From: Syntrophomonas sp. | Lineage (GTDB): Bacteria > Bacillota > Syntrophomonadia > Syntrophomonadales > Syntrophomonadaceae | Length of the DNA stretch: 64,000 bases | Direction of reading: 5' to 3' | Assembly (NCBI GenBank): GCA_028693695.1 | Contig: JAQUUV010000001.1 | Span: 959 to 64,958, forward strand | Part shown: piece by piece, positions 27,514 to 41,764 of the stretch | Layout: each line of letters opens with the position of its first letter | How positions within the stretch are numbered: position 1 is the stretch's first letter | The notes under the pieces: generated by a model | Seen by the model: the letters and a program-made list of their open reading frames with translations, nothing else | Databases searched by the model: none | Told to the model about the DNA's origin: nothing | Made by a program: the position numbers and the translations under genes

Positions 27514-27560
27514 AAGGGGCCGCAACGAAACTTAGGTTTTGTTACGGCCCCTTCTTTTAC
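27514..27560 (+). terminator. Rho-independent terminator
   Basis: AGGGGCCGCAAC..GTTACGGCCCCT stem followed by TCTTTTACTTTT. Confidence 0.6.
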
Positions 27561-27581
27561 TTTTGGAATTGCTCCTATTAC

Positions 27582-27779: not shown

Positions 27780-28136
27780 ACGTCCCAGGCATTAAACGAA
27801 ATCATCTGCAATCTAATCATAAAATATAATGACTGCACCATGGAAGATCTGGAAGGTATATTTCCATTATCGCGAAAGCTTTTTGACACTGTTCCCCATT
27901 CGGAGATCCGCTCATTTAATCTTGATTACCTGACGGAAATTGAAGTGGAACCATATAAACACGACTTTTTAAACGTTGATGACTGGCCCCGGACCTATAC
28001 CTTTAACGATGACAACGCCATTGAAAGCAATGGCAATTTTTAGGCGCTGGCACCCTATTATAATTACAAAAATTATGTTATCACGCGAAAAACCGTATAT
28101 AAACTGTATGGTGATGCATATACAGAAGCGATGTTG
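27779..28136 (+). pseudogene. Internal fragment of the SIR2-like gene (copy of 37437..37795), with an in-frame stop
   Basis: TSQALNEIICNLIIKYNDCTMEDLEGIFPLSRKLFDTVP.. is almost identical to the paralog at 37306..38145. There is a stop after ..AIESNGNF. Homology continues to ..YKLYGDAYTEAM. Confidence 0.85.
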
Positions 28137-28235: not shown

Positions 28236-29114
28236 CTATTTGTCGATGGAGTTCCAGTCCAATTCATTGGGATTCCATCCCAGAACGCTCATCTGCGTTT
28301 TGGTAATGTAGCGTACGCGACCGTTTTCCAACTCAACAATGCGTTTATCCACATTTTTGCGAAACATATCTTCTTTGCCGGGGATAATTTTACCAAAGTC
28401 CGAAAGGTAGTCATAGATATCTTCGCGGGTTGCGCCCTCATATTCCCAGCCACCCTCAACATAGTTAAGGGTCGGGTTTGCACCAAGATCGTATAATATG
28501 TTGAAAGGAACGTTGAATCCCAACGCTCTATTGTCATGTGATGTAGTACTTAATTTCTTAAATTTCTCTGTGAAATCGCCCTGCCATTCGTCAGATGCCC
28601 CTGCAAATATTTCCGCCATGACATGTCTGTAGGCCAGAGGCCGACTAAAGGTTATCGAATAGCAGTGCTTTGTCGCTGCTCGGCTCAGTTTCACAATATC
28701 CGCCTGTGCAGGCGAGATACATGCAACAACGATATCATGCTTGGGAAAGTCTATACCGGGTGTAGATTTATGCCAATTTAAATGCAGCGTCTCTACATTT
28801 GTCAAGCCCTCTTCCCTTGCGTTTTTTGCGCAGTACGCCAACATATTTTCGCCTGCATCCATTCCAGTTACGCGCTTCACACGCTTTGCAATGGGCAGCG
28901 TTAGGCGGCCTGCGCCGCAGCATGCGTCAAGCACGGTATCCTCGGGAGAAAGATTGAGCGCGTTGACTTGTTTTTCAGTAAATTTCTTTTCAAACCCTCT
29001 CCGTCTGTCCCAGCTGTCCGCAGTAGTATCCCAATGTGCCGTTGATTCGTCGTCCATGGAAGTTGCCCAACCTGTCATTTTTTCCAGCATGCGCCAGTTT
29101 AGTAGTCCTTCCAT
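28236..29114 (-). CDS. Class I SAM-dependent methyltransferase (cassette 2)
   Basis: Motif I VLDACCGAGRLTLPIA. Start at the ATG at 29114, behind a GGACGGAG RBS. Confidence 0.85.
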   Translation of the reverse strand: MEGLLNWRMLEKMTGWATSMDDESTAHWDTTADSWDRRRGFEKKFTEKQVNALNLSPEDTVLDACCGAGRLTLPIAKRVKRVTGMDAGENMLAYCAKNAREEGLTNVETLHLNWHKSTPGIDFPKHDIVVACISPAQADIVKLSRAATKHCYSITFSRPLAYRHVMAEIFAGASDEWQGDFTEKFKKLSTTSHDNRALGFNVPFNILYDLGANPTLNYVEGGWEYEGATREDIYDYLSDFGKIIPGKEDMFRKNVDKRIVELENGRVRYITKTQMSVLGWNPNELDWNSIDK

Positions 29115-29153
29115 TATATTACTCCGTCCTTTCTTACATATCTGCACCGCTTT

Positions 29154-29933
29154 TTATAGCTTGGCAATGCAAACATTTCGTCCAACTTTTTCAACATGTT
29201 CAATTTTAACATCGATCTGATAAACCGATGAAAGCATTTCCTCTGTAATGGCGTCTTTAGACAAACCTACTGTTAAGTGCCCACTTCTATCAAGAACGCC
29301 CACGGTATCTTCCAACATGATGGCATGATCGGGGTTATGCGTTGTCATAATAATGGCGAACCCCCGTTTTGACAGGTCTTTGATCATGCGGATCGTCTTG
29401 AGCTGGTTCCCAAAATCCAACGCAGAGGTTGGTTCGTCCATTATAATTATCTTGGGCTCCTGCACTATGGCGCGAGCAATCATCGCTTGCTGGCGCTCGC
29501 CGCCGCTGATATCTGTATACGGACGGTCTGCCAGATGTGCGATTCCCATCGACTCAATTGCGGCATTTGTCTTGACAAAGTCCTCATTGCTGGGCATTCG
29601 ATAGATGCTAATATAGGGTGCCCGCCCCATAACGACAAAATCGCGTACAGAATATCCATAGGTGGCATTGTGTGTCTGTGGCACATAGCCGATGTTTTTA
29701 GCAATCGTTTTTCTATCCAATTCTTTAATCAGCTTGCCATCGATAAAAATCTCACCCGTATTGAGCTGCAGGAGGTTTGTGATACAATTTAAGAGCGTGG
29801 ACTTCCCTGCGCCGTTTGGCCCTATTATGGAAAATATCTGCCCTTCTTCTATTGTAAAGTTAACATTTCCAAACACTTCATGGCCATCCAGGTAAGAAAA
29901 CCCAGCGTTTTTCACTTTCATTAAAACGTTCAT
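29154..29933 (-). CDS. ABC ATP-binding protein (cassette 2)
   Basis: GPNGAGKST, ISGGERQ, IIMDEPTSALD. 4-bp overlap with the permease gene. Confidence 0.9.
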   Translation of the reverse strand: MNVLMKVKNAGFSYLDGHEVFGNVNFTIEEGQIFSIIGPNGAGKSTLLNCITNLLQLNTGEIFIDGKLIKELDRKTIAKNIGYVPQTHNATYGYSVRDFVVMGRAPYISIYRMPSNEDFVKTNAAIESMGIAHLADRPYTDISGGERQQAMIARAIVQEPKIIIMDEPTSALDFGNQLKTIRMIKDLSKRGFAIIMTTHNPDHAIMLEDTVGVLDRSGHLTVGLSKDAITEEMLSSVYQIDVKIEHVEKVGRNVCIAKL

Positions 29934-31012
29934 CGCAATTTCATCCTTTGCTTAAACAACAGCCATGCAAACAACGGCGCACCAATAAATCCCGTGATTA
30001 CGCTAAGAGGTACCTCCGCGGCAGTTACCGTGCGCGCCAGCGTATCCACTACCAACATAAACGATGCGCCCACAAATACCGAAATGGGCATGACCTTGGA
30101 ATTATCCGGTCCAACAATCATTCTGCACATATGCGGAATGATTAGTCCCACCCATCCAACCGTACCACTTATGCATACTGCGCAGCCCGTCAATACGGTG
30201 GAACAAATGATGGCGCAGCCGCGAATCGCCTTAATGTTTGTCCCCAGTAAGCTAGCCTCGTTTTCCCCTAGTGATATAATATTGATACGCCAACGGATGA
30301 CAATAAGTATTATCATTGCCACAAACATTGCTGGAAAGACCGCAATGACATCTTCTGCTTTGACGGACGAGATACTTCCCAGTTGCCAATAAGTAATAGC
30401 CGCCAACTGTGTTTCCGGGTCGGCAATGTATTTTAACAAGCCGATGGTAGATATCATGAATCCCGATACAATGACGCCTGAAAGCACAAGCATCAACGAT
30501 GAACTATTGCGCATCAGTTTGGGAATGGCAGTTGCGATGAATACTGCAACCAAACCAAAAGCCAATGCGAAGAGCTGAATTCCTATATGTCCCAGACCCA
30601 TTAGTATAGCCAGCGCTGCACCTACACACGAACCCGAGGATACACCGAGCAGGTCTGGAGAAACCAACGGGTTTTTAAATATGCCTTGATAGGTTGCGCC
30701 AGAAAGCGAGAGTGCCGCACCGACAAGCAAAGCTGCTATCATACGCGGAAGCCTTACCTTTAATACCACGTTTTCCATGATGTCTGTCCATGTTCGTTCT
30801 ATTGGAAAAATGGGAGAAAGCAGGATTCTTATTATATCTTCCAGACTTAAACTGTATCTGCCTAAGCAGAGGGAAACTAAGCTTAGTACAAGAGTTAAGA
30901 TAATCATCAGAACGAGCACCCGACATCGCCGCTTGTCATTTGCCATTCTTACCAATTCCACAGATTTATTCGAATTCATTCCAACTTCACTGCCCCTTAT
31001 TACATCCCACAT
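29930..31012 (-). CDS. FecCD/BtuC-family ABC permease (cassette 2)
   Basis: GAALSLSGATYQGIFKNPLVSPDLLGVSSGS, GAPLFAWLL. The start is uncertain (31012 or 30979). Confidence 0.9.
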   Translation of the reverse strand: MWDVIRGSEVGMNSNKSVELVRMANDKRRCRVLVLMIILTLVLSLVSLCLGRYSLSLEDIIRILLSPIFPIERTWTDIMENVVLKVRLPRMIAALLVGAALSLSGATYQGIFKNPLVSPDLLGVSSGSCVGAALAILMGLGHIGIQLFALAFGLVAVFIATAIPKLMRNSSSLMLVLSGVIVSGFMISTIGLLKYIADPETQLAAITYWQLGSISSVKAEDVIAVFPAMFVAMIILIVIRWRINIISLGENEASLLGTNIKAIRGCAIICSTVLTGCAVCISGTVGWVGLIIPHMCRMIVGPDNSKVMPISVFVGASFMLVVDTLARTVTAAEVPLSVITGFIGAPLFAWLLFKQRMKLR

Positions 31013-31083
31013 CCATTTTGTAAACTCACCCCAACTTTGTTGGAGTGAGTTTAAATTAGCGCATAATCACCCAAGTTTTATTT

Positions 31084-32157
31084 TTACGGAGCTGTCGGGA
31101 AGAGAATATCCTGAATTTCTTTTTCTGTGGGCGTATATTTATAATACGTATTATAGAAATTAGTTACTTCCGCTTTCATGTCGATATCGGCAAAAAGCTT
31201 AGGCTGAATAACGGTGGCTGCCCACAGCACCTGTAAGGCTTCATCAGCGCTTCTTACGCACCATGGAAACACGCCCCTGGGATTAACATATACTTTGTCA
31301 TTCTTGATAGCTGAGAGTTTGGCCAATCTTGCGTCTGCTAAATAGGCTTTCTTATGAGCATAATCCCTGCAAATGATAATATCAGGATTCCATTGAAGCA
31401 ACTGCTCAGGAGATACGTCTTTGAACGTTCCTTCAATGCCATTTTCAGCAGCAATATTTACACCGCCTGCCATTTCAATCCATGATTTAACAATGGTGCC
31501 ATTGCCTTCTGTATTAAGGATACCGTTTGCAGCATAAAACACGGTAGGGCGGTCTGCCTTCGCGATGGCAGTTGTTTTTGCTGTAACATTATCTATGTTT
31601 TTCTGATAGAACGCACTCAGTTGTGCAGCAATCTTCGTTTCCTTTTCACCCATAATCTCACCAAGAAGATTGACGCATTTAATAAGAGTTTCAGGAGAAG
31701 TACCCATCATCATTACTGCGGGGATACCGGCGTTTTCAACTGTGCTTTTTTGTTCTTTGGTGCTGACGATGACAACATCCGGCTTAAGGCTCATTAGCAT
31801 CTCGACATTAATCTCGCTTGTGGCTGAAATGAACATGGGCAGTTTTGTGATCTCGGGGTAAAATTTAATGTACCATTTATTGTTGACGTTGGATGTGTTG
31901 ACAGCTATGTTTTTTCCAGGGCTGCCAAGCAACAAGAACATTTCTTCAACCGCGGGATAAGTACTGCAGATGCGATTTACTACCTTGGGGATTTTCACTT
32001 CAGCGCCTGTGAAGTCAACGACTGTGCGGGTTTCCGCAACGGTCTTGGTGGATTTATTAGAAGTAGTGGTTGTGGTTTTCTGGCAGCCTGTAGCAAATAC
32101 AGCCATCATCATTATTGCCAACGCAATCGCCAATACCCGTGTTAATTTCTTTTTCAT
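31084..32157 (-). CDS. Periplasmic-binding-protein lipoprotein (cassette 2)
   Basis: Lipobox FATGC. PDVVIVST, PWCVRSADEALQVLWAATVIQPKLF. Confidence 0.85.
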   Translation of the reverse strand: MKKKLTRVLAIALAIMMMAVFATGCQKTTTTTSNKSTKTVAETRTVVDFTGAEVKIPKVVNRICSTYPAVEEMFLLLGSPGKNIAVNTSNVNNKWYIKFYPEITKLPMFISATSEINVEMLMSLKPDVVIVSTKEQKSTVENAGIPAVMMMGTSPETLIKCVNLLGEIMGEKETKIAAQLSAFYQKNIDNVTAKTTAIAKADRPTVFYAANGILNTEGNGTIVKSWIEMAGGVNIAAENGIEGTFKDVSPEQLLQWNPDIIICRDYAHKKAYLADARLAKLSAIKNDKVYVNPRGVFPWCVRSADEALQVLWAATVIQPKLFADIDMKAEVTNFYNTYYKYTPTEKEIQDILFPTAP

Positions 32158-32220
32158 TTTCTTTCCTCCTCGTATAATAATTTTAGAGCCATTAAGTAAT
32201 ACACCTAAAACCCGGCTATT

Positions 32221-32256
32221 ACTAACCTATAACCTAACCTATAACCTAACCTATAG
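32221..32256. repeat. Short tandem repeat (about 2.5 units of TAACCTATAACC)
   Basis: ACTAACCTATAACCTAACCTATAACCTAACCTATAGC, located in the long AT-rich leader of cassette 2. Confidence 0.7.
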
Positions 32257-32504
32257 CACTCTGCTTTTATTGTCCATCTACTTTAAACGGTATGAAATAT
32301 GGGTTATAATTTTATATTTCCCACTACAAAAACCATACTTTTATAAATTTCTTACAATCATTCAGTCGATGCAATTGCCTAATAATGATTTTTTGTTTTC
32401 GGGAAAGAACGGCTTAAACATGTTTCATGTTTACACAAAAAAATATGTAATAAGGCTATCGCATAATAGTCGCGCTTATTACATAAAAATACACACATTT
32501 ATTC

Positions 32505-32620
32505 ATTCTACATTGCACTCCTTTCCAAATTCGGGAGGCATACCAGTTTCCTAGCATACCCATAGGTTACTTTTCATGGCATTAATGCTTTAGAAAAAGC
32601 AACTCGAATTGCATTTATGT
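32505..32620 (-). promoter_or_regulatory. Moco (molybdenum/tungsten cofactor)-type riboswitch candidate
   Basis: The minus strand reads ..TTCGAGTTGC..CTAGGAAACTGGTATGCCTCCCGAATTTGGAAAGGAGTGCAATG. The GGAAAC, GCCUCCC and UGGAAAGGAG blocks keep the same order and spacing as the other two copies and as the E. coli moaA leader I recall (GCCUCCCGUAUCUGGAAAGGUG). The 5' block is less canonical. Confidence 0.55.
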
Positions 32621-32974
32621 TTGTTTTCATTTTTGTTAATGTTATTACCGAACTTTTTTATTGTCAATCCATAATGTGGTAAATACTATTTTATTGTCAA
32701 AACAAGGTTTGTATTACATAAATACTAAGAGATACTATTAGTACAGCAGAACAATTTATTTAACAGACTACCCCGGTATAAAGGCAATCCGTACCTAAAA
32801 GATCGAGGCGTCACCCTTTTCGATAGAAAAAGCCAGGCCCTTCAAACCCCTATGCCCCCCTATCATTATATTTTCTGAAAGGACATCAATTTAAGTCGTC
32901 AATAAATTCAAACATTGCAGGATTCCACATTTTTATGTCGAAATTGAACGCTGTAAACATATATACAACTAAAT

Positions 32975-33070
32975 ATACTCCGAGCCAGTTAACCTAAAGT
33001 GAAACCCAAGGTTTTCAGGACGATAGGGTTTGTCGGGAAACTGACATGCCTCCCAATGTGGAAAGGAGAA
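32975..33070 (+). promoter_or_regulatory. Moco (molybdenum/tungsten cofactor)-type riboswitch candidate
   Basis: ACTCCGAGCCAG..GTCGGGAAACTGACATGCCTCCCAATGTGGAAAGGAGAAG. All three conserved blocks are present (CCGAGCC, GGGAAAC, GCCUCCC-N4-UGGAAAGGAG), and CUCC/GGAG can close P1. A weak hairpin plus T-rich tail lies at 33092..33121. Confidence 0.7.
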
Positions 33071-33266
33071 GCTGAATTCGGCCAGATAACGGGCGGACTG
33101 CTTTTGCGGTTCGCCTTTCTTGTTAATTTGGTTGTGGTTGACTATTAAAAATAGTTTTTTTGCTCGGCATTTCCTTCTGCCGGGCTTTTGCTATTTCTGG
33201 AATCGACTACCTGCCAAGGTTTGCCATAGTAAGCCTTAAGAATTAAATAGACAAGGTGGGATAAAT

Positions 33267-34343
33267 TTGCATGATTCAAATAGTTCTGAAATAGATTTAT
33301 CAATCAAAACAAAAAAAGACGTTGCCAGAAAATTTAATAAGAAATGGATACTTCTTATCCTTAGCCTATTACTAATTGCTACTTTTGCCATTTCTTTCAC
33401 TCTTGGCAGGTATGCAATTCCATTATCGCAGCTTTTTGAAATTCTTTTTTCAAAACTATTTGGGTTTCAGGCGACTTGGGACGCTACGATGGATACCGTA
33501 CTGTTTAAAGTCAGACTGCCAAGGCTTTTAGCAGCCATAATGATTGGGGCGGTCCTGTCTTTATCAGGAGCTACCTATCAGGGATTGTTTAAAAACCCAA
33601 TGGTTTCGGCCGATATTCTGGGAGCCTCGGCTGGAGCTGGGTTTGGAGCTGCTATAGCTATGCTGCTTTCTTTCGATGCCGTTGGAATTCAACTTATGTC
33701 CTTTGCATTCGGTCTGGGTGCGGTTGCGATTACCACCGTAGTCAGCACGATAGTGGGACGCGGCAACGATTCAACCCTATTGCTGGTTCTTACCGGAATG
33801 GTGGTTACTTCACTTTTCTCCTCAGCTATTGCATTAATTAAATATGTTGCAGACCCAGATCTCAAGCTGCGAGAAATAACTTTCTGGCTTATGGGGGGGC
33901 TTTCCGCCATCAGAATGAGCGATTTAAAAATTGTTCTTATTCCAATGATTTTAGGGGCGGTTCCATTGCTGCTTTTGAGATGGAAACTAAATGTTCTTTC
34001 CTTTGGAGATGAAGAGGCCCAAGCAATGGGAATTGACACGTCGCGGTTGAGATTAATCACCATCATTTGTTCTACCCTACTGACCGCCAGTACCGTTTCT
34101 ATTGGTGGGATTATCGGCTGGGTGGGATTGGTCATTCCGCATTTGGCACGAATGCTGGTTGGACCAAATTACAGTATTCTTTTGCCGACATCCTTATTAG
34201 TTGGAGGCTTATACTTGCTGATTGTTGATAATGTTGCAAGATGTATGTTCGCTATGGAAATTCCCCTTGGAATATTAACATCTGTCATTGGAGCACCCTT
34301 CTTCATTTACTTACTTATGCACGGAAAGAGAGGATGGGTATGA
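33267..34343 (+). CDS. FecCD/BtuC-family ABC permease (cassette 3)
   Basis: TTG start behind an AAGGTGGG RBS. GAVLSLSGATYQGLFKNPMVSADILGASAGAG, GAPFFIYLL. Confidence 0.9.
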   Translation: MHDSNSSEIDLSIKTKKDVARKFNKKWILLILSLLLIATFAISFTLGRYAIPLSQLFEILFSKLFGFQATWDATMDTVLFKVRLPRLLAAIMIGAVLSLSGATYQGLFKNPMVSADILGASAGAGFGAAIAMLLSFDAVGIQLMSFAFGLGAVAITTVVSTIVGRGNDSTLLLVLTGMVVTSLFSSAIALIKYVADPDLKLREITFWLMGGLSAIRMSDLKIVLIPMILGAVPLLLLRWKLNVLSFGDEEAQAMGIDTSRLRLITIICSTLLTASTVSIGGIIGWVGLVIPHLARMLVGPNYSILLPTSLLVGGLYLLIVDNVARCMFAMEIPLGILTSVIGAPFFIYLLMHGKRGWV

Positions 34344-35122
34344 AACTAGAAATCAATAATGCTGTTTGTGGATATGGTTCCAAGAAGGTAATAGAAGACA
34401 TATCATTTGATGTAAAGTCAGGAGAAATCCTTTGCTTGCTGGGACCAAACGGAGTGGGCAAGACAACCCTATTTAAAACCATTTTGGGCTTTTTAAGGTT
34501 ACAGAGCGGGGAAATTCTAATTGAAGGAGATAACGTAAAAAACTGGTCTAGAAATCGGTTGGCAAAAGCAATCGGCTATGTACCTCAAGCACATACGCCG
34601 CCCTTCCCTTTTAATGTCCTTGATGTAGTAGTCATGGGAAGGACTGCTCATATAGGTCCTTTTTCATCCCCATCCAAAAAGGATGTTCTAATTGCTGAAG
34701 AAGCATTAGAAACATTAAATATCTCTTTTCTAAAAGACAGAATTTACACCGAAATAAGCGGAGGAGAACGGCAGATGGTGCTGATTGCCCGTGCCCTTAC
34801 TCAGCAACCCGACATTTTAGTAATGGATGAACCGACGGCAAATCTGGATTTTGGGAATCAAATAAAAGTGCTTGAGCAAATAAACCGCTTATCCAAAAAC
34901 GGTTTGGCTGTTTTTATGACTACGCATTTCCCGAATCAGGCGTATCTTTGCTCAACAAAGGTTATCATCCTCCAAAAAAACAATGAGTTTAAAATGGGTC
35001 AAGTTGAGGAGGTGATTACCGAAGAAACCCTTAAAGCAACCTATGGAATCGATGTTAGAATTACCAGTGTAAAAAATCAAAACGGTGACAAAATCAGTGC
35101 TTGCATCCCATTACTCAATTAG
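34340..35122 (+). CDS. ABC ATP-binding protein (cassette 3)
   Basis: ATGA overlap with the permease stop. [27 protein letters not shown]. Confidence 0.9.
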   Translation: MKLEINNAVCGYGSKKVIEDISFDVKSGEILCLLGPNGVGKTTLFKTILGFLRLQSGEILIEGDNVKNWSRNRLAKAIGYVPQAHTPPFPFNVLDVVVMGRTAHIGPFSSPSKKDVLIAEEALETLNISFLKDRIYTEISGGERQMVLIARALTQQPDILVMDEPTANLDFGNQIKVLEQINRLSKNGLAVFMTTHFPNQAYLCSTKVIILQKNNEFKMGQVEEVITEETLKATYGIDVRITSVKNQNGDKISACIPLLN

Positions 35123-35185
35123 CTTGGCCGAGATTCTTTATTCCCGAAAATCATTGATAAATCAAGACAGGAAAGGATGATTAAG

Positions 35186-36250
35186 ATGAAAAATATCAAT
35201 AAAAGCATGGCAGTTGTGGTATTGCTCTTATTAATTCCGATGATTCTGGTCGGCTGCGGTAACAATAAAGCCAATGTTCAAGTACAAACGCCCGCCAAAC
35301 AAACCATCACAGATATGATGGGAAATAAGGTAGAAATTCCGGTTGAAGTGAAAAGGCTAGGCGATAGTTGGCAAGCTCATAATGAAGTGGTGGCAATGCT
35401 AGGGGCTGGCGATCGAATTGTTGCTACAATTCATACACCTCAAAGCAGACCCTGGTTATTTAAAGTTGTTCCTGCCATGAATAATGCCGTCCAAACTTTC
35501 GATGCAAATGGTGTGAAAATTGAAGAATTGATCAAAACAAAACCAGATCTTGTCTTTGTCTCACAAGGTGACAAAAGCGCCAAAACAATTACCGAGGCTG
35601 GCATTCCAGTGGTTGAATTTAAAACCTTTACAAACTATGACGAATTAAAAGAACTTTTCAAATTTACAGCCAGTATGCTCGGAGAAGATGCTAAAAAACG
35701 AGCTGATCTATATGCTTCTTATCTCGACAGTAAAATCAAAATGCTGACTGATGTAACTTCCAAAATACCTGAGGATAAGAAACCGAAAGTATTGCACATA
35801 ACTTCCCTTTCTCCGCTCTCGGTAGATGGTAATAATACCATTATTAATTCCTGGATCGAAGTTGCCGGCGGTATTAATGCAGCTAAAGAAACCAGTGGAA
35901 ACATGGTTAAGGTTAACATGGAGCAGGTATTAAAGTGGAACCCTGATGTAATCATAATAGGCAATACAGTTAAAGATTGGGACAAAGTTCTAACAGACCC
36001 CGAATGGGCAAATATATCTGCTATCAAGACCAAAAAGGTTTATCTTAATCCTGACGGAGCCTTTTATTGGGACCGTTATGGAGCGGAGGAAGCTCTGCAA
36101 ATTCAATGGGCAGCTAAATTATTAAATCCAGACCAGTTCCCAGATCTAGATATAGCCAAAGAAACCAAGACCTTCTACAAAACTTTTTTTAGCTATGACC
36201 TTACTGATGACGATGTGCAACTGATATTGAAAGGATTACCCCCCAAATAA
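35186..36250 (+). CDS. Periplasmic-binding-protein lipoprotein (cassette 3)
   Basis: Lipobox LVGC. PDVIIIGN, FYWDRYGAEEALQIQWAAKLLNPDQF. The start could also be 35177. Confidence 0.85.
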   Translation: MKNINKSMAVVVLLLLIPMILVGCGNNKANVQVQTPAKQTITDMMGNKVEIPVEVKRLGDSWQAHNEVVAMLGAGDRIVATIHTPQSRPWLFKVVPAMNNAVQTFDANGVKIEELIKTKPDLVFVSQGDKSAKTITEAGIPVVEFKTFTNYDELKELFKFTASMLGEDAKKRADLYASYLDSKIKMLTDVTSKIPEDKKPKVLHITSLSPLSVDGNNTIINSWIEVAGGINAAKETSGNMVKVNMEQVLKWNPDVIIIGNTVKDWDKVLTDPEWANISAIKTKKVYLNPDGAFYWDRYGAEEALQIQWAAKLLNPDQFPDLDIAKETKTFYKTFFSYDLTDDDVQLILKGLPPK

Positions 36251-36367
36251 AATAGATTTCTAAGCCATTAAAATTTCGGTGCCGTGATGGCGATGTTGCC
36301 TGCCTATCTGATCAGCAATATCGTCTATTGCGGCAATATTAATTATATTTAATGAGGTGAAACAAAT

Positions 36368-37216
36368 ATGGGTATTAAAATCGTTGATGTTCAGGAAGGT
36401 AGCGCTATGGCAGCTAGACTGGCTCTTGAAAAGAAATTGATTCCGTTTATAGGATCAGGATTTACTGCCTATTGCAAGTCAAGGCAGGGATATTGTCCGA
36501 CTGTGGAACAATTAAAAGAGATCAGCCGCAATTTATTAATTAAATTTAATGATTACTTACTTGAGGATATTAATGAAATAAAAACTCATCCAATACGGAC
36601 GTTTTTTGATATTGCTCCACGGTCTGATGTTAAAACATTTTTTCTTGATTACTTTACAGAAATAGAGTTGGAACAATATAAGATGGATTTTTTGAATGTA
36701 ATTGATTGGCCGCGAGTTTACACCTTTAATATTGATAATGCCATTGAAACCCATGGTAATTTTCAAGCGTTACTACCTTATACAAATTATAAGGATTATG
36801 TTATATCTAGGAGGCCTGTTTATAAATTATATGGTGACGCATACAGTGAAGCAGTATTTGATGATTGTGAAGGTGTATCCTTCAGAAATGGTTATGTCAA
36901 AAACCTTACTGCTAAAAAGAATGCGGATTTTGTTGAAAGTATAGGCAACGATTTTGCCAGCAATAATATTATTTATGTCGGTACGAGAATAACACAGAAG
37001 CATATCAGAGACATTTATCAGAAGAGTAAACCAGTGCAAAGTTTGCAACGCATTATTGTACTCGACACAGTACCCACGCCTGAAGAAGAAGAAGGCTTAT
37101 TAGTTGCGGGTGTTAATCTGATTATTCTTGTTAAAGAATATAAGCCGTTTTACACGACGTTTGTCGACTGCTATCGAAAAATGGCTGCCAATCGTAATTC
37201 ATCAGAATCGGCATAA
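36368..37216 (+). CDS. SIR2-like (SIR2_2-type) domain protein, paralog 1
   Basis: The SIR2_2 blocks occur in order: LIPFIGSGFT (GAG-type NAD loop), VYTFNIDNAIE (the TTNYD..E block), VYKLYGDA (the position of the HG block, with Tyr in place of His) and NNIIYVGTRITQKHI. Confidence 0.6.
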   Translation: MGIKIVDVQEGSAMAARLALEKKLIPFIGSGFTAYCKSRQGYCPTVEQLKEISRNLLIKFNDYLLEDINEIKTHPIRTFFDIAPRSDVKTFFLDYFTEIELEQYKMDFLNVIDWPRVYTFNIDNAIETHGNFQALLPYTNYKDYVISRRPVYKLYGDAYSEAVFDDCEGVSFRNGYVKNLTAKKNADFVESIGNDFASNNIIYVGTRITQKHIRDIYQKSKPVQSLQRIIVLDTVPTPEEEEGLLVAGVNLIILVKEYKPFYTTFVDCYRKMAANRNSSESA

Positions 37217-37305
37217 CGAGGGGAGTGTCGCCGCTATGACTGCCGAACGGGGCCATATTTGGACGAACCAAATTTTTGTTCGTATTCTTTTGTTAGGAGG
37301 TAACG

Positions 37306-38145
37306 ATGGGTATTCATATATTAGATATTCCGGAAGGATGCAGCATGGCCGCAGGGCTGGCTTTTGAAAAGAAATTGATCCCGTTTTTTGGTGCGGGATT
37401 TACCGCGAATTGCAGGTCGAAAAACGGGCGCTGCCCGACGTCCCAAGCATTAAACGAAATCATCTGCAATCTGATCATAAAATATAATGACTGCACCATG
37501 GAGGATCTGGAAGGTATATTCCCTTTGTCGCGAAAGCTTTTTGACACAGTTCCCCCTTCGGAGATCCGCTCATTTTATCTTGATTATCTGACGGAAATTG
37601 AGCTGGAACAGTATAAATTCGATTTTTTAAACGTTGTTGACTGGCCCCGCGCCTACACATCCAATGTTGACAACGCCATTGAAAGCAATGGTAGTTTTCA
37701 AGCACTGTTACCATACTATAATTATAAAAACTATGTTATTACCCGAAAACCAGTATATAAACTGTATGGTGATGCATACGCAGAAGCAATGTTTGATGAT
37801 TGCGAAGGAATTGCCTTCAGAAACTCCTATCTTCCAAACCTTACAGCCAAGAAGAACTGGGATTTTGTAGAAAGCCTAATAAGCGATTATTCAAACTATA
37901 ATTTTATTTTTGTCGGAAGCAGCCCAAAAGGCAAAAAGCATATGGCATACATCTTTGAGTGTAGCAAACCCAGCCAGGATTTACAGCGTTTTCTGGTGTG
38001 CAATGCAGTACCCACTCAGGAGGAAGAAGAAAATTTATTAGCCATAGGTGTTGAGCAAATCATTCTTGTTGAAGATTTCGAGCTGTTTTACACAATATTT
38101 GTAGACTGCTATCGAAAAATAGCAGCCAATCGTGCTTCGTTGTAA
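37306..38145 (+). CDS. SIR2-like (SIR2_2-type) domain protein, paralog 2
   Basis: LIPFFGAGFT, AYTSNVDNAIE, VYKLYGDA, YNFIFVGSSPKGKKH. Clear paralog of 36368..37216. Source of the fragment at 27779..28136. Confidence 0.6.
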   Translation: MGIHILDIPEGCSMAAGLAFEKKLIPFFGAGFTANCRSKNGRCPTSQALNEIICNLIIKYNDCTMEDLEGIFPLSRKLFDTVPPSEIRSFYLDYLTEIELEQYKFDFLNVVDWPRAYTSNVDNAIESNGSFQALLPYYNYKNYVITRKPVYKLYGDAYAEAMFDDCEGIAFRNSYLPNLTAKKNWDFVESLISDYSNYNFIFVGSSPKGKKHMAYIFECSKPSQDLQRFLVCNAVPTQEEEENLLAIGVEQIILVEDFELFYTIFVDCYRKIAANRASL

Positions 38146-38295
38146 CCGGCATAATCAGGGTATTCTAAACAATGTATTATGTACCCAACAGCAGACCCTA
38201 TATACTCGCTATAGATTAATTGTATTGTTTGCATATTCTTCACAGTAATGTGAGAAATGCGTTGCGGAAAAAGATCGACAAAAGAAGGGGGAAAT

Positions 38296-39042
38296 ATGAA
38301 AAAAATTGCAATTTACGGCAAGGGCGGAATTGGGAAATCCACAATAACCGCGAATTTGTCGGCGGCTTTGAGCAAGAAAGGCTACAAGGTTATGCAGATC
38401 GGCTGCGATCCCAAGTCCGATTCCACCAAAGCACTGATGCACGGAGTTAAAATCCCCACCGTTTTGGACCAAATCAAGAAAAACGGCAAAAAAGTAACAC
38501 TCAAGGAAATTGTGTTTGAAGGGTATAACGGTGTTCTGTGTGCGGAGGCCGGCGGACCTACGCCCGGGATCGGCTGTGCCGGGCGGGGCATCATTACGGC
38601 TTTTGAAAAGCTGGAGGAGCTGGGGGCTTATGAGATACTCAAACCCGACCTCGTCTTTTACGATGTTTTGGGGGATGTAGTGTGCGGAGGCTTTGCCATG
38701 CCAATCCGCAATGGATACGCCGACCAGGTGTTTATTGTCACTTCTGGAGAGATGATGGCCATGTATGCCGCTTCCAATATCGTAGCCGCCATCGAGGGCT
38801 TCGGAAAACGAGGCTATGCAAAATACTGCGGACTTATCTTAAATTCGCGCGACATAGAGAACGAATATGAGCTGGTCTCAAAGCTAGCGAGAGAAACCAA
38901 AGGCCAGATTATCGGGGTTATACCCCGTAACATCAGTGTTCAAAATGCGGAACGCCTGAATCAAACCGTGGTGGAGGCTTTTCCTGATTCCGAAATGGCC
39001 ATCTGCTATCGAGATTTGGCTGATAAAGTGATGGAGGTGTAA
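38296..39042 (+). CDS. NifH/BchL/CfbC-family ATPase (nitrogenase iron protein-like)
   Basis: MKKIAIYGKGGIGKST (P-loop), CDPKSDST (switch I), and both [4Fe-4S] Cys motifs, GIGCAGRG and DVLGDVVCGGFAMP. Only 248 aa. Start at the ATG behind a GGGGGA RBS. Confidence 0.9.
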   Translation: MKKIAIYGKGGIGKSTITANLSAALSKKGYKVMQIGCDPKSDSTKALMHGVKIPTVLDQIKKNGKKVTLKEIVFEGYNGVLCAEAGGPTPGIGCAGRGIITAFEKLEELGAYEILKPDLVFYDVLGDVVCGGFAMPIRNGYADQVFIVTSGEMMAMYAASNIVAAIEGFGKRGYAKYCGLILNSRDIENEYELVSKLARETKGQIIGVIPRNISVQNAERLNQTVVEAFPDSEMAICYRDLADKVMEV

Positions 39043-39046
39043 GGGC

Positions 39047-40285
39047 ATGTATAATGACTCGGTTTTTGAAAACACACTTCAATATCATAATCCGTCACCG
39101 GCGCGAGTTCAGTTAGAAGTAAGAACAGGCCTCCCCGAAACCCATCGGCTGCATGTGTCGCCGTCTGCCTGCGGACGACGATTTGCGATAAGTGACCTTC
39201 GCCATGGAGTCAAGGAAAATCGTTCTCATTTGTTCATCAGCGAAGAAGATATTTTTTCTAGTTGCTATGAGGATTTGATACCCGATGCGGTTGAGGAAAT
39301 GCTTAATATTATGGAAAAGCAGCCGAGAGCCATCATTGTATATGTGACCTGTATCGATAATTTTCTGGGAACAGACCATAACGCGCTAGTCTCCTTGCTG
39401 GCTCAACGGTTCCCCGATATAAAATTCACCGTTTGCGCTATTAACCCCATTGCCCGGGATAAGGGGGCCCCGCCCAACGTAAATCTGCAGAATGTATACT
39501 ACGGGCTTTTAGACAGAACCGAAAATACAGAAGATGCTGTAAATCTTGTCGGGAATCACCTGCCGCTTGTAAAAGGATGCGAAATTTTCGAGATTCTGCA
39601 CGGGCTGGGAATGAAAGCGAAGGAAATTTGCAGCTGCAATACCTTTGACGAGTTTTTGTCCATGGCGAATAGCCGCTTAAATGTTGTCGTGGGACACGTG
39701 GCTCAGATGGCTGCCGAGCAGATGGAACAAAAGCTGGGTATTCCGTTTTTATCTGCACCGCGCTCCTATAAAATTGACGAAATAATACAGTTGTATAATG
39801 ATATGGCCTCTGCTTTGGGGCGCGGCAAACCCGATTTGAAAGGGTACATCGCCCGGTCAAGAGAGAAGATTGAAAAGACGTGCAAGTATCTTAACAATAT
39901 GCCGATCGTGGTCGATTCCTCCGGGAGACCTTTTTCTTTGGCAAAAGCGCTTTTGAATTACGGCTTCAATGTTAAAATGGTCTTTGGCGGGGTGGTTTTG
40001 ATCAGCGATATGCCAGACTATGAGTGGATAAAGAATAACCGGCCGGATATCACGATTGCCGACGCACGCCGATTTGATGTGATAAACGCCAATAATCAAT
40101 TGGGTGAATGCCTTTGTATCGGATTTTCAGGCGCCTATACGCTGGGAGCTAAACATATGGTGGATATGGATGGGGGAAATGCCTATGGATTTTACGCCAT
40201 TGAGGTCTTGATGGACAAGATGAACGAGGCCCGCGACTCAACAGTAGATTTCAATGCGCTTCTAAATGAAAGCGAGGTTTGGTAA
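39047..40285 (+). CDS. Nitrogenase component-1-like subunit (NifD/NifE-like, short form)
   Basis: 412 aa, 4 nt after the NifH-like stop, GGAGGTG RBS. Oxidored_nitro-like pattern (VSPSACGRR.., VYVTCIDNFLGTD). About 100 aa shorter than true NifD. Confidence 0.7.
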   Translation: MYNDSVFENTLQYHNPSPARVQLEVRTGLPETHRLHVSPSACGRRFAISDLRHGVKENRSHLFISEEDIFSSCYEDLIPDAVEEMLNIMEKQPRAIIVYVTCIDNFLGTDHNALVSLLAQRFPDIKFTVCAINPIARDKGAPPNVNLQNVYYGLLDRTENTEDAVNLVGNHLPLVKGCEIFEILHGLGMKAKEICSCNTFDEFLSMANSRLNVVVGHVAQMAAEQMEQKLGIPFLSAPRSYKIDEIIQLYNDMASALGRGKPDLKGYIARSREKIEKTCKYLNNMPIVVDSSGRPFSLAKALLNYGFNVKMVFGGVVLISDMPDYEWIKNNRPDITIADARRFDVINANNQLGECLCIGFSGAYTLGAKHMVDMDGGNAYGFYAIEVLMDKMNEARDSTVDFNALLNESEVW

Positions 40286-40288
40286 AAC

Positions 40289-41458
40289 ATGAGTCAGCTG
40301 TGTGTATATTTGCCCCCCTTTTCGAGCGACTATTCCGGCGTGTGCACCTGCCTTTTTGATCTGAACGGCATGGTGGTCATTCATGATGCATCCTGTTGCT
40401 GTGCCAACTACGTAAGTTATGACGAACCACGCTGGTTTGGCAACAAAAGGCCGATTTATTGTTCGGCGCTGCGGGAGATTGACGCTATTTTAGGAGACGA
40501 CGAGAAATTTATTCGCAAAGTTATTTCGGCATGTGACAGCATGAAGCCGGAGTTTATCGCGGTGCTGGGCAGCCCTGTGCCAACGATCATCGGCTCCGAT
40601 ATGAACGGAATCGCCCAGGAGATTGAGGGAAAAACGGGGGTGCCAACTTTTGGATTTAGCACTACCGGGTTTCGTTATTATAACCGTGGAGTGGCCGAGG
40701 CCATGGTTAAGTTTGCCAAATATTACGGAGGCAAAAGCAGTCAGCAAAATCCTGGCGGTGTCAATATCCTGGGGCTCACAGTGCTAGATTTTTCCGACAA
40801 CTCCAATGCCGCCGATATCCGAAATCTTTTTGAGGGAAACGGCTTTGAAGTGATTTGCAGCTTTATGATGGGCTGCAACCTAATGGATATACAAAGATCC
40901 ACGCAGGCTGAGGTGAATATTGTAGTGTCCCAGTCGGGAATGGCTTTGGCAGCTTTTATGGAGAAAGAATGGGGAATCCCCTATGTTGCGGCAACCCCTT
41001 TGGGCAATGAGGGCAGCGAAGCCGTTGTGCGCACTGTTCGGCAGGTCTGCGAGGACCACAAGAGCCGGGTTTTGCACGGTGAGGGTCTGCATGACGGCGA
41101 GGTTCTGATCCTGGGCGAGCAGATGATTGCTAACTCCTTGCGCAACTCCCTAGCGCAGAGCTACGGAATAAAGGGGGTTACGGTAGGGTGCCTATTCGGC
41201 ATGGATAAGGCATTGGCGCAGGATTTCGATATTGACATCAGGGACGAACGACATATTCGGGATTTGATTACAAGCGGAAAGTATAGCAAGCTGGTTGCCG
41301 ACCCTCTCATGAAAGTTATGCTTAAAGATAGGGATATTTCTTTCTTCCCCCTGCCCCATGTGGCGGTATCGAGTAAGCTATACTGGCACCGCTACAAGAC
41401 CTTTATCGGAGATAAGATGGAAGCTTTTCTCGCGCAAATTGCTGGAATCCCGATGTAA
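40289..41458 (+). CDS. Nitrogenase component-1-like subunit (NifK/NifN-like, short form)
   Basis: 389 aa, 3 nt after the preceding stop. VIHDASCCCANY.., AVLGSPVPTIIGSDMNG are typical of the component-1 family. Confidence 0.7.
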   Translation: MSQLCVYLPPFSSDYSGVCTCLFDLNGMVVIHDASCCCANYVSYDEPRWFGNKRPIYCSALREIDAILGDDEKFIRKVISACDSMKPEFIAVLGSPVPTIIGSDMNGIAQEIEGKTGVPTFGFSTTGFRYYNRGVAEAMVKFAKYYGGKSSQQNPGGVNILGLTVLDFSDNSNAADIRNLFEGNGFEVICSFMMGCNLMDIQRSTQAEVNIVVSQSGMALAAFMEKEWGIPYVAATPLGNEGSEAVVRTVRQVCEDHKSRVLHGEGLHDGEVLILGEQMIANSLRNSLAQSYGIKGVTVGCLFGMDKALAQDFDIDIRDERHIRDLITSGKYSKLVADPLMKVMLKDRDISFFPLPHVAVSSKLYWHRYKTFIGDKMEAFLAQIAGIPM

Positions 41459-41537
41459 TACAAACAATTGAACAGTAAGCGTTCAATAGCGGAACCTTTA
41501 CCTCAGGAAATACTTAAAGTAGTATTATCCTTATGAT

Positions 41538-41671
41538 CCTGAATGGGCAAATATATCTGCTATCAAGGCCAATAAAGTTCATCTTAATCCTGATGGAGCC
41601 TTTGCGTGGGACCGTTATGGAGTGGAGGAAGCCCTGTGAATTTAATGGGTTGCTAAATTATTAAATCCAGA
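41538..41671 (+). pseudogene. Fragment of a binding-protein gene (copy of 36003..36136)
   Basis: CCTGAATGGGCAAATATATCTGCTATCAAGGCC..GGGACCGTTATGGAGTGGAGGAAGCCCTGTGAATTTAATGGG aligns with the 3' part of the cassette-3 binding-protein gene but carries stops. Confidence 0.8.
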
Positions 41672-41710
41672 TGGCTAATAAGATTTGAACTTTATTATTA
41701 CTTCATAGAA

Positions 41711-41750
41711 ATACCGGGCAGTAAATAAACTGCCCGGTATTTTTGTTTTA
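41711..41750 (+). terminator. Rho-independent terminator
   Basis: ATACCGGGCAG-N8-CTGCCCGGTAT followed by TTTTGTTTT. Confidence 0.8.
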
Positions 41751-41764
41751 TGAGCCAATGTTAC

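Follow-up and report, generated by a model that had tools for sequence, protein, structure and literature searches.

A P3-less Moco/Tuco riboswitch heads a string of Fec-type importer, SIR2-like and nitrogenase-like genes with a possible role in molybdenum or tungsten supply

Nitrogenase-like (NFL) genes next to an importer, downstream of Moco RNAs, were tabulated without comment for two strains of Desulfitobacterium hafniense (Y51 and DCB-2) in the supplement of Regulski et al., 2008, in the order RNA, COG0303 (MoeA), NifH, NifDK-like, COG0303, FecCD, FepC, and TroA. The corresponding entries in Regulski et al. (2008), Dha-1-3 and Dha-2-2, are those of the D. hafniense 'Nif operon III' (Dhaf_1537-1545), and D. 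hafniense has two Moco-RNA operons with chelate-type importers. For this operon, the authors of the D. hafniense genome paper proposed a role 'other than nitrogen fixation', and a 2026 review of NFL enzymes is silent on the riboswitch, MoeA, molybdopterin, and tungsten. Eubacterium limosum carries two Fec-type transporters controlled by Tuco riboswitches, fetABC1 and fetABC2, of which fetABC1 has a terminator platform in its leader and is upregulated under W limitation; the authors assigned both to iron, and cellular Fe was higher on lactate. In Haemophilus influenzae, MolA, the binding protein of the MolBC-A importer, binds molybdate and tungstate, and molB transcription is repressed by molybdate. 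An earlier reading of our locus, made from the sequence only, had stated that the characterized nitrogenase-like enzymes have no reported link to Mo/W-cofactor sensing and that chelate-type importers lie outside the classical Moco riboswitch regulon. The first statement is contradicted by the D. hafniense table, and the second by D. hafniense, E. limosum, MolBC-A, and three operons in the DNA analyzed here. The gene arrangement itself is thus not new; what is new is the comparative linkage of importer, riboswitch, MoeA, and DUF364.

The window, by which we mean the whole 64,000-nucleotide stretch of Syntrophomonas sp. DNA that was analyzed, contains the following features.

23113..28043, plus strand: third sister operon, with a P3-less RF01055 at 23113..23232
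28236..32621, minus strand: divergent sister operon, with a P3-less RF01055 at 32502..32621
32966..33084, plus strand: Moco/Tuco riboswitch aptamer, P3-less variant (RF01055 by cmscan)
33091..33125, plus strand: intrinsic terminator hairpin and U tract, presumed expression platform (11-bp stem with 7 G-C pairs, then TTCTTGTT)
33162..33195, plus strand: second terminator-like leader hairpin (8-bp stem at 33162..33185 with 6 G-C pairs, then TTTTGCTATT)
33267..34343, plus strand: FecCD-family (type II ABC importer) permease (PF01032, 285 bits)
34340..35122, plus strand: ABC importer ATPase (PF00005, 117 bits)
35177..36250, plus strand: class III substrate-binding lipoprotein (Peripla_BP_2), 4ovk/MolA-like (PF01497, 106 bits)
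36368..37216, plus strand: SIR2-like accessory protein a (Avs5 SIR2 domain match, 1.3e-22)
37306..38145, plus strand: SIR2-like accessory protein b, paralog of a (Avs5 SIR2 domain match, 7e-21)
38296..39042, plus strand: NifH-like ATP-dependent reductase (Fe protein homolog), 248 aa (PF00142, Fer4_NifH, 319 bits)
39047..40285, plus strand: NifD/E-like catalytic subunit, 412 aa (PF00148, Oxidored_nitro, 69.7 bits)
40289..41458, plus strand: NifK/N-like catalytic subunit, 389 aa (PF00148, 127 bits)
41523..41639, plus strand: binding-protein gene remnant, 38 codons (translates to YYPYDPEWANISAIKANKVHLNPDGAFAWDRYGVEEAL and a stop)
41711..41750, no strand assigned: strong hairpin terminator, operon end (ATACCGGGCAG-loop-CTGCCCGGTAT-TTTTTGTTTT)

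Profiles placed every member of the gene string that the sequence-only reading had described, namely the importer, two SIR2-like genes, and a NifH-D-K-like trio. The Moco-type riboswitch that it had proposed upstream is real: cmscan scored RF01055 at 32966..33084(+) with 55.8 bits (gathering score 36, E 1.2e-10), aligning the full model (1-135) with positions 58-73 (the P3 stem) deleted, and the aptamer reached 99.9 bits with a covariance model of our own (R1). The claim needs amending in two respects, as the variant is the P3-less 'Tuco' form and RF01055 occurs four times in the window, this aptamer included. The first leader hairpin (33091..33116) begins 7 nt past the aptamer end, and the terminator is present in the minimum-free-energy fold of the leader with the aptamer. 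By analogy with E. limosum fetABC1, the ligand-bound aptamer is presumed to be the off state; folding of the leader yielded no convincing anti-terminator, which counts against a role of the operon in Mo/W supply. The strong terminator said to close the run was confirmed by reading its hairpin directly in the sequence, as it is missing from the pattern-scanner list, and it also serves the convergent fdhA gene. From 33185 to 41711, the pattern scan returned no terminator of any strength on the plus strand, and we infer that all eight genes are co-transcribed. The remnant follows the NifK-like stop codon, ahead of the final terminator; its DNA is 88% identical to 35996..36132, and it is a relic of the family-typical order NifHDK, binding protein, FecCD, ATPase. 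The window holds three RF01055-headed Fec-type importer operons: in the divergent sister operon, the RNA and a terminator precede binding protein, FecCD, ATPase, and class I methyltransferase, and in the third, the RNA is followed by methyltransferase, FecCD, ATPase, binding protein, and a truncated SIR2-like fragment (27687..28043). The neighborhood also includes two formate dehydrogenase operons, of which one has a selenocysteine codon.

The FecCD permease starts with TTG downstream of an AAGGTGG ribosome-binding site, and its top NCBIfam matches (BtuC, FhuB, and FecD) each fall under the cut-off. The ATPase gene begins in an ATGA shared with the permease stop codon, and the homologous gene calls on a sister contig (L094) also overlap by 4 nt. 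The binding protein, in whose translation an LVGC lipobox is seen, matches 4ovk (7e-43) and MolA HI_1472 (1.4e-28) in the PDB, the latter being its nearest characterized relative in that comparison. Against Mo or W as substrate, the similarity to MolA is modest (65-113 bits) and common to the whole binding-protein clade, and 4ovk, the closest structure to this clade, has no known ligand. The two SIR2-like proteins, 62% identical to each other, both match Pfam SIR2_2 weakly. Protein a has a Tyr at the catalytic His position (KLYGD versus KVHGD in P0125) and only 5 homologs among 5.8 billion proteins; the order RNA, importer, SIR2-like is found again in an unrelated 5.4-Mb genome (L093).

The assignment of the last three proteins as nitrogenase-like held up against the Fer4_NifH and Oxidored_nitro profiles at the scores listed above, and the view that this is not a nitrogen-fixation cluster agrees with the absence of nifB, nifE, nifN, nifV, and PII genes among the annotated ORFs. 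The P-loop and both cluster cysteines (Cys94 and Cys130) of the NifH-like protein, already reported as intact, are invariant in all 60 relatives compared; NCBIfam scored CfbC at 340 bits and NifH at 338 bits, both under their cut-offs. For the NifD/E-like subunit, NifE is the best match of the family profile (7e-18). Its Cys42 and Cys102 are invariant, and Cys102 aligns to the Cys in the conserved TC..LIGDD motif of NifE; in the same profile alignment no Cys occurs at the position of the MMVCSKAM motif, whose Cys is an L-cluster ligand of NifE. Among 86 NifK/N-like sequences, Cys37 and Asp33 are fully conserved and His32 nearly so, and the family profile is about equidistant from NifD, NifE, and BchB. 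The best PDB match of the NifK-like protein has an E-value of 5e-11, and the NifD-like protein as a single sequence has none. The conserved residues point to a probable [4Fe-4S] cluster of the DPOR type between the subunits of the NifD/K-like heteromer. Every NCBIfam score lies far under its cut-off, which places the trio in a functionally uncharacterized clade outside every characterized family.

Of 42 informative loci of the NFL subfamily, we found 41 to have the importer adjacent, including all 21 with both flanks visible. Outside Acetobacterium, the riboswitch is present in 5/5 loci with a NifK-like protein that shares 56% identity or more with that of the window; besides the window, these RNAs occur in L002, L003, L004, and L005 (56-95% identical). 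In L005, the RNA is followed by FecCD, ATPase, binding protein, methyltransferase, and NifHDK, and in L004, a Desulfosporosinus contig, the aptamer and terminator lie directly 5' of the nifH-like gene, about 100 nt before its ATG. The sister contig L094, 93-95% identical to the window, has kept the RNA, the importer, and SIR2a and has lost most of SIR2b to a deletion, along with almost the entire set of NFL genes, so that the NFL module is dispensable, at least in that strain. This loss, together with the 89-150 nt gaps upstream of SIR2a, SIR2b, and the nifH-like gene, the nearly equal CfbC and NifH scores, and the simple DPOR-like cluster suggested by the conserved ligands, would fit passenger genes with their own promoter that serve, as CfbCD or DPOR do, to make or modify an unrelated metallocofactor or tetrapyrrole, the riboswitch serving the importer only. 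We consider this very unlikely, given the position of the RNA and terminator in L004, the D. hafniense RNA that precedes MoeA-NifH, the terminator-free plus strand between 33185 and 41711, and the finding of tetrapyrrole genes at none of the loci examined.

The clusters of Acetobacterium tundrae, A. paludosum, and L087, which share the same flanking genes, lack the Moco RNA in 3/3 cases and instead begin with MoeA and contain one to three DUF364 genes. DUF364 is elsewhere tied to molybdate and tungstate transporters, including ModABC-type oxyanion transporter operons, and the paper on its structure predicted that the ligand resembles a pterin or flavin. That prediction bears on a salvage role, in which the importer would take up molybdopterin, Moco/Wco, cPMP, or breakdown products, the accessory and NFL enzymes would repair or reduce the pterin-dithiolene, and MoeA, whose adjacency fits this step, would re-metallate it. 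Fec-type importers belong to the class that takes up B12 and haem; B12, TPP, and FMN riboswitches likewise control salvage transporters, and riboswitch-headed importers occur in many genomes; the SIR2-like proteins have a dinucleotide-binding fold, and characterized NFL enzymes carry out heterocycle reduction or C-S cleavage. In several loci, L003 among them, there are multiple paralogous binding proteins per importer, a pattern more readily explained by varied organic complexes than by a bare oxyanion. We nevertheless regard salvage as improbable: no pterin-cofactor transporters are known, Moco is extremely labile, DUF364 also occurs with oxyanion transporters, and oxyanions are the ligand of the nearest characterized binding protein.

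About 40 distant NFL-plus-importer members (31-46% identity, mostly from gut Firmicutes) have no Moco RNA, and their sampled flanks contain neither MoeA nor DUF364. One gut lineage among them adjoins FeoAB and a DtxR-type repressor. On these grounds together, the substrate of the ancestor may have been another metal complex. The FeoAB neighborhood, the annotation of the importer as iron-siderophore class, and the E. limosum authors' own interpretation of fetABC1 and fetABC2 would suit an importer of iron chelates (or haem or siderophores) that simply shares its regulation with W/Mo enzymes, with the NFL enzyme reductively freeing iron for Fe-S-rich tungsto- and molybdo-enzymes. Such a role seems unlikely to us, since an off-switch would lower iron import just when the cofactor is abundant and demand for Fe-S apoenzymes is therefore high. 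Moreover, expression of the E. limosum transporter goes up under W limitation, orthologous clusters contain MoeA and DUF364, and the 23-49 kb segment of the window holds no Fur- or DtxR-type gene.

With moderate confidence, we propose that the string is a cofactor-repressed Mo/W scavenging operon whose NFL enzyme reductively processes an imported Mo/W species. Abundant W (or Mo) cofactor would bind the aptamer, the terminator at 33091..33125 would form, and transcription would stop, while scarcity would allow read-through into the eight genes. The MolBC-A-like type II ABC importer would then take up Mo/W as tungstate or molybdate, although a thio- or ligand-complexed form, as found in sulfidic anoxic habitats, is more likely. 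A cytoplasmic Rossmann-fold accessory protein (SIR2-like here, DUF364 or class I methyltransferase in orthologous clusters) would act on this species, and the NFL enzyme would then process it by ATP-driven, low-potential reduction, allowing MoeA to insert the metal into molybdopterin. This proposal is supported by the RF01055 score well above threshold with its terminator, the recurrence of the RNA with close NFL relatives and of the RNA, importer, and SIR2-like order in L093, the importer adjacency, the oxyanion-binding MolA relative, the fetABC1 response, and the adjoining formate dehydrogenase operons. MoeA in the D. hafniense operon and MoeA and DUF364 in the Acetobacterium-type clusters strengthen it further. 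It is weakened by the NFL loss in L094, the RNA-less distant members, and the multiple binding proteins; the canonical MoeA reaction, which does not need molybdate to be reduced, also argues against it. Thus, of the two functions offered by the sequence-only reading, Mo/W uptake with ATP-dependent reductive processing survives, and we found nothing in favor of a tetrapyrrole chelate. Overall, our findings suggest a role for this NFL clade in providing anaerobes with Mo or W for cofactor synthesis.

Each described system shares only part of this architecture. MolBC-A (HI1470/71 and MolA HI1472) likewise combines a FecCD permease, an ATPase, and a class III binding protein, but has no NFL, SIR2-like, or DUF364 partner. 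NifH with NifEN mobilizes Mo from molybdate during FeMo-cofactor maturation, a precedent for the handling of Mo by this protein pair, and the window similarly pairs an ATP-dependent Fe protein with a NifE/N-type heteromer. Unlike NifEN, however, this heteromer has a partial cluster-ligand set without the MMVCSKAM Cys, NifB and NifV are missing, and the NCBIfam scores (40 and 71 bits) fall far short of the cut-off of 505. DPOR/COR and CfbCD share the two-component architecture without a complex cofactor site, and the conserved residues fit a DPOR-like [4Fe-4S] cluster, probably the only one between the subunits, whose fourth ligand is not Cys (Asp33 and His32 are conserved in the K/N-like subunit). 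In contrast, the BchB (61.6 versus 490) and CfbD (23.6 versus 268) scores are far from their cut-offs, CfbD is a single subunit whereas the window encodes two distinct ones, and there are no tetrapyrrole genes nearby. By arrangement, E. limosum fetABC1 and fetABC2 resemble the window in having a P3-less RF01055 at the head of a Fec-type ABC importer, but no NFL genes were reported there. The D. hafniense Nif operon III has the Moco RNA, NifH-like, two Oxidored_nitro, and FecCD/FepC/TroA genes on one strand, with cysteines likewise reduced to two in the D/E-like and one in the K/N-like subunit (Dos Santos, 2012). Since D. hafniense proteins were absent from the homolog-search results, this likeness is one of gene arrangement and cysteine pattern rather than of direct orthology. 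Unlike the string described here, that operon lacks SIR2-like genes, includes two copies of MoeA and a BioB-like radical SAM gene, and places the NFL genes first and the importer second.

Searching the whole window with Rfam cmscan, we found four matches to RF01055, the model of the Moco riboswitch, and one fluoride riboswitch. The 23 to 49 kb segment is a Mo/W island, and the RF01055 matches are the following:

23113..23232, + strand: P3-less RF01055 match, heads a Fec-type (FecCD) importer
32502..32621, - strand: P3-less RF01055 match, heads a Fec-type (FecCD) importer
32966..33084, + strand: P3-less RF01055 match, heads a Fec-type (FecCD) importer
48951..49089, - strand: the only P3-containing RF01055 match, heads the formate dehydrogenase gene 46301-48640

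The 32966..33084 RNA matches the full-length model at 55.8 bits (gathering score 36; E 1.2e-10), which bears out the Moco riboswitch that the sequence-only reading had placed 5' of the operon. In the cmscan alignment it retains the conserved core, namely P1, P2 (with a few non-canonical pairs), P4 with its GAAA tetraloop, P5 and the GCCUCCC...UGGAAAGGAG block, and the blocks CCGAGCC, GGAAAC and GCCUCCC..UGGAAAGGAG fall in the expected helices. The P3 stem that marks the Moco-specific subclass is deleted (model positions 58-73), and the RNA is therefore of the 'Tuco' type, as P3 presence was found to correlate with Moco and P3 absence with Tuco (Regulski 2008). The fluoride riboswitch (RF01734, 9095-9164, minus strand) scores 34.7 bits, just over its gathering score of 34, and lies ~60 nt upstream of the minus-strand enolase gene 7731-9032.

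Sequence and folding reveal a terminator platform 3' of the aptamer, followed by a string of importer, SIR2-like and NifHDK-like genes, just as the sequence-only reading had described it, and a closing hairpin:

33091..33125, + strand: 11-bp, G+C-rich terminator hairpin followed by TTCTTGTT, 7 nt 3' of the aptamer
33162-33195: second, weaker terminator-like element of the leader (hairpin 33162..33185), 3' of the riboswitch terminator and 5' of the permease start codon
33267..34343: FecCD permease
from 34340: ABC ATPase, in ATGA overlap with the permease
35177..36250: Peripla_BP_2 lipoprotein, the binding protein
36368..37216: SIR2-like paralog a (SIR2a)
37306..38145: SIR2-like paralog b (SIR2b)
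38296..39042: NifH-like protein, 248 aa
downstream of the NifH-like gene: two Oxidored_nitro proteins, 412 and 389 aa
41711..41750: closing hairpin, plain in the sequence

Constrained and stepwise folding yielded no clear anti-terminator. In E. limosum, P3-less riboswitches were described in 2024 5' of two 'Fe ABC-type' transporters, and fetABC1, which has a terminator platform, rises under W limitation; by analogy, the cofactor-bound RNA would be the off state here as well.

The NifH-like protein belongs to the NifH/Fe-protein family (PF00142, 319 bits) and carries a GKGGIGKS P-loop. This P-loop and the cluster cysteines Cys94 and Cys130, both of which had been noticed from the sequence, are invariant in 60/60 relatives. 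The protein scores below the curated equivalog cut-offs for NifH (338 vs 394 bits) and CfbC (340 vs 402). As a single sequence, the 412-aa NifD/E-like subunit found no relative in the PDB, and a 27-sequence profile of it matched NifE best (7e-18). Its invariant cysteines are Cys42 and Cys102, the latter aligned with the Cys of the NifE TC..LIGDD motif, which is cluster ligand Cys124. In the family-profile alignment no Cys of this subunit stands opposite the NifE MMVCSKAM motif, whose Cys, L-cluster ligand Cys250 (Azotobacter numbering), occupies the homologous cofactor-Cys position of nitrogenase. The 389-aa NifK/N-like subunit has an invariant Asp33, a near-invariant His32 and Cys37 as its sole invariant Cys, and its profile is about equidistant from NifD, NifE and BchB. 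A nitrogenase (Nif/Vnf/Anf DK) would be marked by six P-cluster cysteines, the alpha-subunit cofactor ligands Cys275 and His442 (Azotobacter NifD numbering) and nifB/E/N; the cysteines listed here are the only invariant ones, and nifB, nifE and nifN genes were not found in the window. With TIGR01283, used as the test for a NifEN scaffold, the scores were 40 and 71 bits, where the cut-off is 505. Judged by sequence, these ligand patterns exclude a nitrogenase and a NifEN scaffold, and we rejected nitrogen fixation and the scaffold function on this evidence; the earlier statement that this is not a nitrogen-fixation cluster thus stands. The same patterns would fit one DPOR-like inter-subunit [4Fe-4S] cluster.

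The cysteine pattern of the two subunits is also that of Dhaf_1539/1540 and Mlab_1040/1039 (Dos Santos et al. 2012), and the profile of the 389-aa subunit collects 815 clusters (50% identity) at E <= 1e-30 among 1.84 billion representatives. At residue 197 of the NifD/E-like subunit (window ~39635-39637), the riboswitch-linked clade and many distant members have Cys, and many of the gut relatives have Tyr, Phe or His; such a variable ligand-type residue might contact the substrate.

The partners of these nitrogenase-like (NFL) genes were surveyed in 84 loci with relatives of the 389-aa subunit, within which we defined a subfamily by a score of at least 280 bits (roughly at least 38% identity). 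A Fec-type importer adjoins the NFL genes on the same strand in 41/42 informative subfamily loci, and in 21/21 of those with both flanks visible, compared with 3/19 among more distant relatives; the importer is therefore a defining partner of the subfamily. Outside Acetobacterium, every locus with a NifK-like protein sharing 56% identity or more with that of the window has RF01055:

L002, Desulfitobacteriaceae MAG: NifK-like 95% identical, RF01055 without P3
L003, Desulfosporosinus: NifK-like 78% identical, RF01055 with P3
L004, Desulfosporosinus: NifK-like 78% identical, RF01055 with P3
L005, Oscillospiraceae MAG: NifK-like 56% identical, RF01055 with P3

Aptamer and terminator hairpin precede the nifH-like ATG of L004 by ~100 nt, which makes the NFL genes themselves the target in this locus. 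The order in L005 is RNA, FecCD, ATPase, binding protein, methyltransferase and NifHDK-like genes, then a second importer. Besides Rfam, these searches used model R1, which was built from ten Moco RNAs with P3 cut by hand and the structure supplied, MAFFT alone having misplaced P2 and P3. With both R1 and Rfam, neither the Moco RNA nor another riboswitch turned up in ~80 more distant metagenome loci, in seven long loci or in the Acetobacterium loci, and the RNA link is therefore clade-restricted; the seven long loci that we sampled contained no other Rfam element either. Word-indexed homolog searches did not yield a D. hafniense ortholog. An unrelated cofactor or tetrapyrrole function to which the RNA is linked only incidentally is a rival reading that we consider very unlikely; tetrapyrrole genes occur in none of the loci examined.

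The clusters of Acetobacterium tundrae (L086), A. paludosum (L097) and L087 (with the same flanks as A. tundrae) lack the RNA, start with MoeA and contain one to three DUF364 genes. A radical SAM gene is present in the L087 and L097 clusters, the L087 copy being HmdB/HydE/BioB-like. MoeA catalyses the insertion of Mo or W into molybdopterin. DUF364 otherwise adjoins molybdate/tungstate transporters, and in Methanococcus maripaludis it lies in a modABC operon cofit with nifH. Two independent signals, the cofactor-sensing riboswitch and the MoeA and DUF364 genes of orthologous clusters, point this NFL clade at Mo/W cofactor supply, which offers a definite class of substrates to test and a handle on regulation.

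We propose, with about an even chance of being right, that this is a cofactor-repressed Mo/W scavenging operon, in which a MolBC-A-like importer is combined with an NFL enzyme that processes the imported species for MoeA. Cofactor binding to the aptamer would terminate transcription at 33091..33125, and a shortage of cofactor would lead to synthesis of the importer together with its accessory proteins and the NFL reductase. The importer would then take up a Mo/W species, and the NFL enzyme would process it for MoeA by transferring electrons at low potential, driven by ATP. Four elements of this scheme are inferences: that the switch turns the genes off, that they are co-transcribed, the substrate, and the reaction. 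A precedent for such a role of NFL proteins is FeMo-cofactor maturation, in which NifH with NifEN mobilises Mo from molybdate; against it, the MoeA reaction needs no reduction.

The importer itself has the MolBC-A-type architecture, with a FecCD permease, an ATPase and a class III binding protein homologous to MolA (HI_1472), which binds molybdate and tungstate for the FecCD-type importer MolBC. In the PDB, MolA is the second match of the binding protein at 1.4e-28, behind 4ovk at 7e-43, a structure without an assigned ligand. Every NFL-linked binding protein is likewise closer to 4ovk than to MolA, and when all binding proteins were scored against MolA, 4ovk and 4hn9, the riboswitch-linked ones were not separable from the others. 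The similarity to MolA is modest and not specific to the riboswitch-linked proteins, which speaks against scavenging of Mo/W, as does the wider subfamily, which has no visible Mo link and includes one lineage that adjoins feoAB and a DtxR-type repressor. The feoAB lineage would sit well with uptake of an iron or haem chelate, co-regulated with W enzymes; we regard this as improbable in view of the MoeA and DUF364 genes. A further point against scavenging is the presence of several binding proteins per locus, which hints at organic complexes. Salvage of the pterin cofactor or its precursors would be an alternative, unlikely in our judgement. In the Desulfosporosinus locus L003 (11248-18593), the NFL genes are followed by two more importers that include three consecutive binding-protein genes, and the opposite strand carries a riboswitch-controlled importer operon ending in an HmdB/HydE/BioB-like radical SAM gene. 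In the window, 41523-41639, just 3' of the NifK-like stop, is a 38-codon remnant of a binding-protein C-terminus (DNA 88% identical to 35996-36132), a relic of the family-typical order NifHDK-BP-FecCD-ATPase.

The accessory proteins vary between genomes. In the slot after the importer, the Acetobacterium clusters have DUF364, L005 and both sister operons of the window have a class I methyltransferase, and the window operon, L002, L094 and the unrelated genome L093 have a SIR2-like protein. In L093 the SIR2-like gene comes after RNA, binding protein, FecCD and ATPase and is followed by flavodoxin-like and radical SAM genes. The methyltransferases, found in two of the three importer operons of the window, are paralogs (38% identical). 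The SIR2-like proteins match the Avs5 SIR2 domain at 1e-22 and have only five homologs among 5.8 billion proteins searched. Of the superfamily features (Rossmann GxG, Asn/Asp motif, catalytic His), the motifs GSGFT and NIDN are found, and Tyr replaces the His (KLYGD) in the two window copies as well as in homologs P0122-P0124; the distant homolog P0125 keeps the His. We rejected an inserted Avs5-type defence gene, as the NTPase and sensor parts are absent and SIR2-like genes follow riboswitch-controlled importers in L093 and L094 too.

L094 is 93-95% identical to window 28.1-37.3 kb and keeps both riboswitches, both importers and SIR2a. A clean 3.6-kb deletion of window 37340..40966 has removed SIR2b, the genes for the NifH-like and NifD-like proteins and two thirds of the NifK-like gene, counted from its start. 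A close relative can therefore dispense with the NFL module, a further point against the scavenging operon; L094 represents a naturally occurring NFL-minus variant, or may reflect an artefact of assembly.

Repeats in the window show segmental duplication and decay. A 201-nt repeat occurs three times (22783-22983, 27578-27778 and 41761-41961); one copy is the 3' end of fdhA, to which the 27578 copy is 99% identical. The 27578 copy abuts 27780-28079, a 300-nt copy of the SIR2b interior (37438-37737; 88% identical), and the two together are a decayed duplicate of a SIR2..FDH junction behind the first importer operon, with a 118-aa SIR2-like fragment (27687-28043). The FDH alpha subunit gene (41765-44461, minus strand) has an in-frame TGA within DHCARL-TGA-HSVT (motif CARL-U-HS), a classic selenocysteine site, and is partnered by NuoF- and NuoE-like genes (44493-46179); the second FdhA-like gene (46301-48640) is a single, uninterrupted frame. 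Three consecutive tyrosine-recombinase genes, a 'recombinase trio' (14515-17776, minus strand), and a fourth integrase beyond the Mo/W segment (50600-51562, plus strand) may mark mobile or rearranging DNA.

The sequence-only reading was right to set nitrogen fixation aside, but its claim that nitrogenase-like enzymes have no reported link to Mo/W-cofactor sensing does not hold. For two D. hafniense strains, the supplement of Regulski 2008 lists the order RNA, COG0303 (MoeA), NifH, Oxidoreductase_nitrogenase twice, COG0303, FecCD, FepC and TroA (then BioB), and a second D. hafniense operon with RNA, Crp, FepD, FepC, COG2014 (DUF364) and TroA. The main text discusses neither operon, a 2026 Chemical Reviews article on NFL enzymes does not mention riboswitch, MoeA, molybdopterin or tungsten, and the literature we searched for both terms draws no link between Moco riboswitch and nitrogenase; the arrangement has therefore been recorded but not interpreted. 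The reading's companion claim, that chelate-type importers lie outside the Moco regulon, is contradicted by D. hafniense, by E. limosum and by the three importer operons of the window. The two signals for Mo/W supply also suggest reassigning 'iron' transporters found under Tuco riboswitches. The 2026 review names uncharacterised clades as the field's main open problem and finds gene context of little help beyond links to sulfur and tetrapyrrole metabolism. Going further, it is possible, if rather doubtful, that in strict anaerobes the NFL clade is an unrecognised part of W/Mo cofactor biosynthesis. As a low-potential reductase driven by ATP, the enzyme would turn a Mo/W species taken up by the importer, be it a thiometalate, a chelate or simply tungstate, into what MoeA then inserts into molybdopterin, and the Wco/Moco riboswitch would directly set its expression. 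This could matter for the poorly understood W/Mo supply of anaerobes in sulfidic habitats, and cultivable carriers exist in A. tundrae, A. paludosum, A. fimetarium and D. hafniense.

Compared with the characterised systems, the window's proteins differ from DPOR/COR in scoring far below the curated cut-offs (BchL 193 vs 345, BchB 61.6 vs 490, BchZ 43.6 vs 529) and from CfbCD likewise (CfbD 23.6 vs 268), and the tetrapyrrole-pathway context of both is missing. For methylthio-alkane and isethionate reductases (NFL groups IV-C and IV-F), we looked for a NifB-like gene and sulfur-assimilation genes and found neither in the window, and we found no placement of the clade in group IV-D, IV-E or another named NFL group. 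Among nitrogenase-like enzyme systems, this one is a new variant without an assigned function, whose gene arrangement had been tabulated as early as 2008, and the comparative evidence yields a specific, testable hypothesis on Mo/W cofactor supply.
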